A stretch of 63,783 bases of DNA, counting the filler, from Basidiobolus ranarum (lineage: Eukaryota): the NCBI GenBank assembly GCA_040143965.1. It is 3 parts of 3 records of this genome, joined end to end, with 100 filler letters (N's around TTAATTAATTAA, not from the genome) between each part and the next. Parts side by side here need not be neighbours in the genome. Positions count along the whole stretch, not along the records: positions 42,614 to 63,783 come from JASJQH010000212.1; 2 more parts are not named here. One strand, given 5' to 3'. A program made the position numbers and the translations under genes. This document shows, one piece after another, positions 21,227 to 53,241 of this stretch. Numbering within the stretch: the first letter of the stretch is position 1; every line of letters starts with the position of its first letter. The notes under the pieces are model-generated. The model was not told the origin of the DNA, made no database searches, and saw only the letters and a list, made by a program, of their open reading frames with translations.

Positions 21227-21326
21227 NNNNNNNNNNNNNNNNNNNNNNNNNNNNNNNNNNNNNNNNNNNNTTAATTAATTAANNNNNNNNNNNNNNNNNN
21301 NNNNNNNNNNNNNNNNNNNNNNNNNN
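21227..21326. other. Assembly gap with artificial linker
   Basis: 44 N + TTAATTAATTAA (stop codons in all six frames) + 44 N. Confidence 0.97.
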
Positions 21327-32827: not shown

Positions 32828-33608
<781 letters not shown>

Positions 33609-42513: not shown

Positions 42514-42613
42514 NNNNNNNNNNNNNNNNNNNNNNNNNNNNNNNNNNNNNNNNNNNNTTAATTAATTAANNNNNNNNNNNNNNNNNNNNNNNNNNNNNNN
42601 NNNNNNNNNNNNN
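42514..42613. other. Assembly gap with artificial linker
   Basis: 44 N + TTAATTAATTAA + 44 N. Confidence 0.97.
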
Positions 42614-49022: not shown

Positions 49023-52000
49023 ATGGAGAGACGCAAAATACCCGAGACTATAACGCAATTTGTTCAGGCAGCACAATGTTTAGACTTTCATGGTAAGTAC
49101 TAGCCCACATCTTACCTTGTTCTCAAATTTAATTGTTCGTCTGTTAGCGTCTAATGACTATTCAGAGCTCTCGGTGGCCTTACAGGTAATGGTTGTAGTT
49201 AGGTTACTTCTCCATGGGGACAATATCATAAATAATTTCCTTATTTTATCCATAAGAATTTGACCGTTTCTCTTCTAAGCTCGAATACTTTAAATCAACT
49301 TCATTTTCTTGCCAAACTATCAGCAAATCCATATGCTGAACGCAATGCATTGGTGTTATACGAATTCATAGATATATTGATCCAAATCTTCGAAGCAGAA
49401 TATACTCAAAGCAAAGTTGTATCCAACATAATAGTTATTTTAACACAACTCGGTAAGGAACTCGTTACGCTATTCACTTTATCGTTCTCGAAAGACTAAG
49501 GATCAGTATTTAGGAAATATTCCTAGTCTTCGTCAGGTTATACACCAAAGGAAAAAGGGTATTATTGATATTGTATCCGTTCGACTACAATCCACTTCAA
49601 ACGACAAAGAATGGTTTCTTAAGGTAAGATCGCATCTAAATAATTTCTACGATTTTCTTAGCGAGGTAACCTGACGTACATGTTGTAGTATATCAGTTTA
49701 CTCAAGGCTCTTACGTATGAGGTTGAGATACTGTATCCAACACCAGAGTCCATTCGGCTTATCAAGTTCCTTCGAGATGTGATGTACGTACAAGTAACAA
49801 AAACACCCTGTTAATATATATGTCGATACTAATTCATGGTATATAGTAAGAAAGCAACGGATAAGGAGGTTCTCGGAGACACTCTCGCACTCTTTAGTCA
49901 TCTTGTTAGATTTAATGAGTCGATCAAAGACAATATTGTTGCAACACCGCATATGTCGTCTTTCTACAGAACATTAATTCAATCACTAAGCAGTGATGAT
50001 CTTTCAGTGATCGTTTATTCTCTGAATATACTTTCAGACCTCATTATTAACGACAAATTGGGTGAGATGGTAAGAATGGTAGTTTCTATTTATTGTTGCG
50101 ATCCGTGATTTAATTGAAGTATTCTTTGTAGCTGTTCAATCGTAACAACATCTCTCAAACCTTCAAACTGATCTTTAACCTGATAACCAACGGGAAATCA
50201 GTGGAAATTGTACGACCTTCTGTAAACCTTGTTGGCGCAATAACATCCAGCGGAACTATCAAAGAATACTTGGACAAGTATAGCCCATTTACCTTTGATA
50301 TTGTTAGTGGATTCGTGCTAAATGTCCTCTGATTATTACTATAGCTACCAATATTTAGAGGTATGTCTACGCCGAGTAACCGCTTTAATATCTTCTGGAA
50401 GACATCAGCTCGTTTTACCGGTAAGAAGAAGAATTGTTGATTGATCAGCGAGGTTCATTTCGACCAGTTCTAACCAATCTCTATGCTAACCTCATCTGAA
50501 CGACAGGCTCTTGACCTCTTATCCATCGTGGTCCAAAGGAAAATTTCTACCGAGACTGTATTCCGTATTATGCATGATTGTGGAGTGTTTTCTGCTTGCT
50601 TGCAGTGGGTTCAATGTCGAATTCGAGAGATAAAACGAGGCAACTACTTGGAAGATATTGAGTGGCCATATCTAATTGACGATATCTGTACCTTTTTCAG
50701 GGACGTATTGAAGGTAGAGGGTTCATGTTCATCATTTCCATGATAACTATGGAGACTAACACCATGACAGGCTGAGTTCACTAGCCATTCAAAATCAGCC
50801 ATCAAGGATACAAGTCGAGCCGGTGTCAGTATTGATCATGACGATTTGGAGTTGGTGATCACTTCTGTACTTGACTCTATAGCCGATGTGTTCATGGATG
50901 GATACTCATTTTTGGAACACGATCTTTTTGTTTACATTCAAATATCTCCGATGTTCGAGCTAGTCAATTATATCCTTTTTTCTCTTACTCTCTTTAGTCA
51001 GATTTACAACGAATCGTCTCCTATTCTTAACCACATAGCTTCTACATTTAGCTGAGATTAATCTGTTGCAGAGACACTTGGCAGATCGCTTAGATATTCA
51101 AAAGTTACTCCAGACTGTCAGGGTATGTTTGCCAGAGAAGAACACCAATCTTCTAACCCCCAAAGAGGAAACCACCATATTTTTCCTTTGGTTGGTCGTC
51201 AAATATTACGAGTATCAGCAGACCGTCGGAACATCCCACGAAGTTAGTCTATCCACCCAATTTCTTCTTGAGAGTGACTATTACTGAATGTACTTTTTAC
51301 TCTCATAGGGTCGTAATGCAATGGCCAATCTGGTGGATCTAGAGGTAGTCGCGGACCTCATAGCAGTAGTGATATCTTGTTCCACTCAAAATACCATTGT
51401 CAAATGTGCATTCGAGATCCTTGGTGCATTATCATGTCAACAACAGGTGCAACAAAGGTATTCCCGGTAACGAGTATTTCTTGGGATGCATTCAGTGTTA
51501 ATATTTTCTACCAAGGTTGTGCCGTATTAATGAGAATCGCTGTCTAATGACTTCAGCCAATGATTCATCCATGGGTGTACCAAAAGTTACTCCATTTCTA
51601 GGAACGAGGACCTCATTTACGCAAACCCACATCAGCGAAGGTTAGTGACAAGCATATCGTTGATCAAGAGAAATCTCTTTCTTGAGATAGTATTAACTCT
51701 TACATCTTCTACTTAGATGATATCAAAGCACGACTTGAAAGTGAGCTTAATTCAGCGAAAATTGAGATGAGAAAAGAATTATTGGTAATTTCATTTGAAT
51801 TCTTATTGTATGGTACATGTACCAACTGAATCTCTTTAATTTAAACCCAAAGGCTCAAGATGAACATTTTGAGGAAGTTAAACAAGATTATGAAGAGCAA
51901 TTGGAAGCATTTCAGGTATTGATTCCTTTTTATTCGCCTGTATCTCATTGGATTCTCCGCTAACTTTCAACACATATTCAGAGCGAGACAAAGCATCTCA

Positions 52001-53241
52001 GAGAGCTTCTAGAGGCTAGAACCTTGGCACTGAATCAAACCGAATCTTTGATAACCGAACTTCGGGGTACACACACCCGAATTGAACAAGATGTATGTCT
52101 ACTCACTATTCACTGTATAGATCAAGGCAGACAGAAACCGATATTAACATTTGAATATTGATCAGATCACCAGTTACAAAGATAAAGCCCTAGAGTTCGA
52201 GACGAATTACAATAGGTTAAAGTTCGATTTCGATAAGAAAATCGAAGATAACGAACGACTAAGAAGTGAATTGAAGAGTATGAAAGAAGAAGTAAGTATA
52301 TTTATCATTTCAAAGAGTGATCTATCAACTCACTCGAATTCTTGATATTACTAGATAGCTATAGCTTACACCGAAAGAGAGAATCTCCAATGCTCATTAG
52401 TCACTTGTCAAGGTGATTACGAAAATCAAAAACAAGAGTAAGTGGTACAATGATTGCATCGATCTTGATCCCATCCCACTTACATTCTTTCCCTATTCAA
52501 TTTGATGCACCAAGAATGGACCGGGTTCAACAAGAATATTCCACAGTAACATCCAAGATGAAGGAATTAGAAGATAGCCTTCAAACCATGAAAGAGCAAA
52601 ATCGACAACTTGAAGAAGAAAATTCCATGTAAGTGATATAATTATGAAATTCATTTCGATACAATACATCTAATACCTCTACTTTCTATAGTAATATGAG
52701 TAAAATTTTGGAAGATAAATACAAATATGAGTCTTTGACAGATGGTTTGTTCCCCGATATCTCATTATTTTAATTGAAGGTATTTCATTTGTTAATCTCT
52801 TTGATTTCATAAATCATTTAGAAAACATCACACTTCAAAGCAAGTATTCCAAAGAAAGGGAGAGATATGAATCGATAAAACAACAATATGATGTTTACAA
52901 GGATGAACATATGGAACAGAATCTGACTCTCCTAAGAAATCAAAAAGAAATTGAAGACAAGGTGATTCTATGAACTTGATGATATATCTTTTATTGATGT
53001 ACTAATGGATGAAATTCTTTATTAGTACGATTGTGTCTTGGATGAATTGAACCGGCATAAAAATGAACTTGAGAAAGCAAACTCGGTGATTCAGGAATTG
53101 GAAGAAGAACTTGAAAAGCATGAACATATTGCCTCTATGATGATGAACATGTACAATGGTAAACGATCGGATAATGGCGCGAGTATAAGCACCAATTCAA
53201 GTACGAATTCTAGACGAAAATCACGTTTATCAAATGAATGA
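49023..53241 (+). CDS. CIP2A: CIP2A-like protein (N-terminal armadillo repeats, C-terminal coiled coil), many exons
   Basis: ISLLKALTYEVEILY and SFYRTLIQSLSSDDLSVIVYSLNILSDLIINDKLGEMLFNRNNISQTFKLIFNLITNG closely follow the animal CIP2A ARM region as I recall it (SFYRTLITLL..VVVFALSILSSL...GEKLF...NIHQTFQLIFNILING). Long coiled coil ending EELEKHEHIASMM. Confidence 0.82.
50970..51045 (+). other. U12-type AT-AC intron in the CIP2A-like gene
   Basis: 5' site ATATCCTTT, branch site TTCTTAAC at 51024-51031, 3' end TCTAC. Removal joins FELVN-Y-LAEINLLQRHL in frame. Confidence 0.88.

Follow-up and report, generated by a model that had tools for sequence, protein, structure and literature searches.

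An AT-AC intron with U12-type signals in the CIP2A orthologue of Basidiobolus ranarum

A sequence-only reading of genomic DNA from Basidiobolus ranarum had proposed that a CIP2A-like gene contains an intron which starts with AT, ends with AC and belongs to the U12 class. The locus raises the question whether these nucleotides are indeed removed as a minor-spliceosome intron, or whether another splice pair, another spliceosome or the absence of splicing has to be considered. The analysis was done on a stretch of 63,783 nucleotides, filler included (the window), in which three contigs of about 21.2 kb are joined by linkers (44 N, TTAATTAATTAA, 44 N) at positions 21227-21326 and 42514-42613. With high confidence, the segment 50970-51045 is taken to be a genuine U12-type (minor-spliceosome) AT-AC intron, the tenth of 21 introns in the CIP2A orthologue of B. 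ranarum. This reading is carried by the splicing signals, the reading frame, the collinearity with the protein family, a deposited protein in which the junction is used, and the occurrence of another U12-type intron in the window.

The gene was assigned with the help of a deposited protein that was found by a single-exon query: KAK9765900.1, annotated as 'hypothetical protein K7432_005399 [Basidiobolus ranarum]' and 934 aa long (hereafter P0001). It was mapped exactly, residue for residue, onto the window from position 49023 to the stop codon at 53241, which defined the following feature.

49023..53241, plus strand: coding region of the CIP2A orthologue; the 934-aa P0001 is encoded in 22 exons separated by 21 introns

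The Pfam domain CIP2A_N (PF21044) was recognised on exon 6 (E 7.2e-11) and on exon 7 (E 2.9e-06), with matches exceeding the cut-off of 26.3 bits, and P0001 matched human CIP2A (PDB 5UFL) with an E-value of 5.4e-33. At E <=0.001, 92 relatives were retrieved from the library, and proteins named CIP2A from Phodopus, Asterias, Polypterus and Mytilus were among the matches. A family profile built from 47 other full-length homologues, P0001 being excluded, aligned the protein over residues 11-911 (E 9.7e-105), a region that includes its C-terminal coiled coil. Across the AT-AC junction this alignment showed no indel and the top posterior marks. The gene at 49023-53241 is a CIP2A orthologue, collinear over its full length with animal CIP2A.

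The structure around the junction is given below.

50771..50969, plus strand: exon 10, 199 nt; its last base, T, is the first base of the Tyr454 codon
50970..51045, plus strand: intron 10, 76 nt, AT-AC, phase 1, with U12-type signals, defined by the sequence and by the mapping of P0001
50970..50978, plus strand: 5' splice site ATATCCTTT, matching the consensus RTATCCTTT at 9 of 9 positions
51024..51031, plus strand: branch-site motif TTCTTAAC, matching TCCTTAAC at 7 of 8 positions, with a single C-to-T difference
51044..51045, plus strand: 3' terminal AC; the intron closes with TTCTAC
51046..51242, plus strand: exon 11, 197 nt; it opens with AT, which completes Tyr454

The donor, the branch motif, the TTCTAC end and the T|AT joining on which the AT-AC proposal had been based are thus all present. 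Upstream of the junction the exon reads ...ATG TTC GAG CTA GTC AAT T and downstream it reads AT TTA GCT GAG; excision of the 76 nt gives FELVNYLAEINLLQRHL, in which the split codon T|AT encodes Tyr454. The unspliced sequence reads FELVNYILFSL... and meets a TGA at 51053-51055, confirming the read-through stop that had been reported for the locus. The junction can be slid by +1 or +2 nt without any change in the mRNA, and canonical ends are obtained only at 50970/51045.

Around the junction the deposited protein reads FELVNYLAEINLL. Under the exact mapping, this sequence requires intron 10 to interrupt the gene behind residue 453, in phase 1 and with AT-AC ends, at 50970-51045. In B. ranarum, the public model of CIP2A is already complete and already makes use of the AT-AC junction. 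The idea that gene finders would truncate this gene did not hold for the B. ranarum record, but it fits relatives, namely a B. meristosporus protein and an annelid model that are described below. An AT-AC intron in a deposited model would usually imply transcript support.

In U12-type introns the branch site has the consensus TCCTTAAC and is found about 10-20 nt ahead of the 3' end. In intron 10, 14 nt separate the end of TTCTTAAC from the end of the intron, and the last intron base is 16 nt away from the first A of the motif and 15 nt from the second. The donor consensus used here is that quoted in a passage of PMC8848931. The signals were compared in 23 introns, consisting of the 21 introns of the CIP2A gene and two introns of an ARF6 gene in the same window. 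No mismatch to TATCCTTT at positions +2 to +9 was found in the AT-AC intron and in one ARF6 intron; the best match to TCCTTAAC showed one mismatch in the AT-AC intron and none in the U12-type intron of ARF6. The other 21 introns (20 from CIP2A, one from ARF6) deviated from the donor sequence at 3-7 positions and, at their best match, from the branch sequence at 2-4, so that the U12-like introns and the others form non-overlapping classes. The 20 remaining CIP2A introns are all of the GT-AG type, measure 55-86 nt and carry signals unrelated to those of intron 10.

The possibility of a chance occurrence was evaluated with a compound pattern (RTATCCTT, a gap, TYCTTAAC, 6-20 nt, then AG or AC) that was searched on both strands of the window. 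It occurred twice. In 300 first-order Markov simulations it occurred 0.107 times on average, and two or more occurrences were seen in none of them. Both matches in the window fall within genes, on the coding strand, and each of them restores the frame. Rfam gave no match when run on the whole window. Taken together, the complete donor, the branch motif with one deviation at the right distance, the frame, the fit to the family profile and the deposited junction bear out the assignment of the intron to the U12 class.

The second match to the pattern lies in the ARF6 gene, whose relevant features are as follows.

32828-32921, plus strand: ARF6 exon 1, aligning to residues 2-27 of the ARF6 chain 2a5g_A in the PDB
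32922..33028, plus strand: U12-type intron of the GT-AG subtype, 107 nt, phase 1, with GTATCCTTT, TCCTTAAC and 18 nt ending in AG
33029-33132, plus strand: ARF6 exon 2, aligning to residues 29-62 of 2a5g_A

Since the two exons cover residues 2-27 and 29-62 and leave one split codon, the junction is fixed by homology alone. The ARF6 case shows that such U12 signals mark real introns in B. ranarum. The ARF6 gene is on a different contig of the window from CIP2A, and the two may be far apart in the genome.

Two other sites in the window were considered. On the plus strand, exon 11 of CIP2A contains at 51123-51167 an in-frame stretch of 45 nt that looks like a tiny intron (GTATGT...CTAAC...AG). 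It was ruled out as an intron, being coding in P0001 and conserved as protein in P0002 of B. meristosporus. On the minus strand, a U12-like set was observed at 20220-20164, with the donor GTATCCTTAA and with CCCTTAAC ending 11 nt before AG, for a total of 57 nt; a search for coding context around this site revealed no clear one.

Alternative splice pairs were collected in a permissive listing near the site, which gave 133 dinucleotide-compatible, in-frame and stop-free pairs. Five full products, that of the AT-AC pair and those of four GT-AG pairs, were scored against the family profile with the following results.

50963-51038, GT-AG: 340.7 bits
50970-51045, AT-AC: 338.2 bits
50930-51038, GT-AG: 324.2 bits
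50997-51051, GT-AG: 323.2 bits
50963-51056, GT-AG: 317.1 bits

The pairs 50997-51051, 50963-51056 and 50930-51038 were ruled out with scores 14-21 bits lower. The remaining GT-AG pair, 50963-51038, is located 7 nt upstream of the AT-AC pair, spans the same 76 nt and is likewise in frame and stop-free. Its product differs from the AT-AC product by three residues (LLH versus VNY) and scores 2.5 bits higher, because animal sequences show a Leu-Leu-x-Leu pattern there. Homology is therefore unable to separate these two pairs and leans by those 2.5 bits to the GT-AG one.

One way to accommodate both pairs is a region of dual use, in which the U12 AT-AC intron 50970/51045 and the overlapping U2-type GT-AG intron 50963/51038 would both be spliced and would give isoforms differing in the three residues; this is considered very unlikely. 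Still less likely is that the U2-type GT-AG pair 50963-51038 is the true intron and that ATATCCTTT is a chance match inside it. The sequence CTTAAC, 8 nt ahead of ATAG, could act as a U2 branch site for this pair, but its donor GTCAAT does not resemble the local GTAAGT-like consensus: among the 21 GT introns examined locally, none has C at +3 and only two have A at +5. Such an intron would moreover require three coincidences at once, a perfect 9-mer U12 donor, a branch motif and an AC placed so that the frame is kept. The deposited protein carries VNY, not LLH. The spliced model of Jimgerdemannia flammicorona has Ala-Asp-Asp at the three residues, closer to VNY, and the retained model of the same fungus reads into ATATCCTT-like codons.

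A different objection accepts the AT-AC boundaries and concerns the machinery. The termini and the type of an intron are separable, as stated in a passage of PMC10639083, and AT-AC ends alone are not decisive for the spliceosome; the intron could be a rare U2-type AT-AC intron excised by the major (U2-dependent) spliceosome. This is hardly credible with a donor that belongs to the U12 class from +3 to +9 and with a branch motif of the same class, unlike all U2-type introns of the gene, and in a genus where the congener B. meristosporus has minor snRNAs and hundreds of minor introns. It is just as hard to credit that the segment stays unspliced and leaves a broken gene or a short product ending at the TGA 51053-51055: minor introns are often retained, and retained-intron models are known in relatives (P0007, P0028), but the downstream exons are all open and aligned to the profile up to residue 911, coiled coil included, and the downstream part is preserved with 62% identity in B. 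meristosporus.

What is established about the minor spliceosome allows a course of splicing to be proposed for the U12-type AT-AC intron. Pairing with ATATCCTTT would be made by U11 first and by U6atac later. U12 would pair with TTCTTAAC, in which a G-U pair would be feasible despite the C-to-T change, and this pairing would bulge a branch adenosine located about 15 nt ahead of the 3' AC. Excision would join T|AT into Tyr454 and keep the frame of 934 aa open. The classic AT-AC U12-dependent introns, reportedly those of Tarn and Steitz in 1996, have in common with intron 10 the ATATCCTT donor, a TCCTTAAC-like branch site near the 3' end and the AC terminus. The CIP2A intron differs from them in its very small size, 76 nt, which resembles that of its U2-type neighbours (55-86 nt), and in the C-to-T change of its branch motif.

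That a U11/U12 spliceosome is at work in B. ranarum itself is suggested by published data for its congener. For B. meristosporus, the passages concerned report 249 minor introns (0.554%; Larue & Roy, 2023, PMC10639083) and 237 minor introns along with U11, U12, U6atac and a low-confidence U4atac (Olthof et al., 2024, PMC11347168). By the published counts, Basidiobolus has the highest density of minor introns known in fungi. For Ascomycota and Basidiomycota, no convincing support for minor introns is reported, and the statement that Dikarya are devoid of the minor spliceosome while some early-diverging fungi retain it agrees with what these passages say (PMC10639083, PMC11347168). Phase 1, the phase of intron 10, is favoured by minor introns according to a survey passage. 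The intron described here belongs to the same genus and to the same intron class as those of B. meristosporus, and the survey passages in question make no mention of B. ranarum. An AT-AC intron in CIP2A is ordinary for the genus Basidiobolus and is to be expected there.

The gene as such is also known for a minor intron in animals. In mouse Cip2a, according to passages of two papers, the donor of the minor intron fits the consensus perfectly (PMC8848931) and the intron of this minor-intron gene is in phase 1 (PMC12956336), which bears out the suggestion in the sequence-only reading that animal CIP2A is a minor-intron gene. The B. ranarum and mouse introns thus lie in orthologous genes and have the perfect consensus donor and phase 1 in common, as far as these passages go; identity of position was judged from an annelid model and not from mouse.

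Conservation of the intron was followed through the protein sequences of other CIP2A homologues, several of which (P0028, P0007 and P0002) apparently derive from models truncated at or just past the minor intron. P0028, 'Protein CIP2A [Lamellibrachia satsuma]' (KAI0224826.1), is an annelid protein of 438 aa that is family-like and then ends with LQLLTDILSLVI. P0007, a protein of 527 aa from the mucoromycote J. flammicorona, ends with VLELADDILFP, while P0093 (924 aa), from the same species and with the same locus tag, continues with VLELADDLASLAEV; the accessions for J. flammicorona CIP2A are RUS31352.1 and RUS31353.1. The tails of P0028 and P0007 and the read-through of the window all have the form x-Ile-Leu, where x is a residue with a NAT codon (Asp or Tyr), which is how N|AT ATC CTT, the start of a phase-1 intron opening with ATATCCTT, would be translated. 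With the DNA deduced from the protein tails, the truncated annelid and mucoromycote models would diverge at the aligned codon into translated ATATCCTT.

Alignment of P0028 by hmmalign placed its Asp in the column of Tyr454. The position in J. flammicorona coincides with Tyr454 only in an ungapped alignment anchored on P-x-x-E-L, whereas MAFFT and HMM alignments introduce a 3-residue insert in J. flammicorona and displace the intron by 3 codons. A ATATCCTT intron at the same codon and in the same phase appears to be present in the mucoromycote and the annelid CIP2A, and the AT-AC intron of CIP2A is probably ancient, as one positionally conserved intron. If codon and phase are indeed shared by these two lineages, and considering the phase-1 minor intron of mouse, the intron would predate the split between fungi and animals. 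What seems new here is this indication that two fungal phyla (Zoopagomycota and Mucoromycota) and animals have one intron in common, with identical codon, phase and subtype; a literature search on minor introns of CIP2A/KIAA1524 found no fungal-animal conserved CIP2A minor intron named. P0087 (236 aa) also has a tail with Asn-Ile-Leu, located elsewhere in CIP2A at a place where homologues are natively similar. It was judged unrelated to a read-through of the junction, given the different site and the similar native motif.

Within the genus, the only CIP2A protein of B. meristosporus that was found is P0002 (ORX90677.1), which has 312 aa, is 62% identical to P0001 and begins 27 residues past the junction. 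With this start, the B. meristosporus annotation does not include the orthologous intron, and the start would fit a model that was broken at the intron. Searches with segments of P0001 found no other B. meristosporus protein covering residues 250-500. Close relatives spanning the junction were looked for with residues 380-560 of P0001 among proteins of near lengths and with residues 250-500 among shorter ones, and both searches returned P0001 itself or nothing. When the P0001/P0002 alignment was used to scan metagenomes for an orthologous DNA locus, 290 stretches matched and not one was confirmed.

The present analysis adds one well-documented minor intron, and one in ARF6, to the fungal lineage that is richest in them, and finds the AT-AC intron correctly treated in the public model of B. 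ranarum. A C-terminal residue with a NAT or NGT codon followed by Ile-Leu may serve as a cheap flag, taken from the protein, for read-through into missed phase-1 U12 introns. A shared intron would explain why CIP2A models are truncated elsewhere, as in B. meristosporus and L. satsuma. Should the region be of dual use after all, the GT-AG pair could represent a back-up path, or a snapshot of the conversion from U12 to U2 at an intron otherwise conserved from fungi to animals. If the shared position is true, the intron of CIP2A would be older than the split between fungi and animals, and the AT-AC subtype itself would have been retained.
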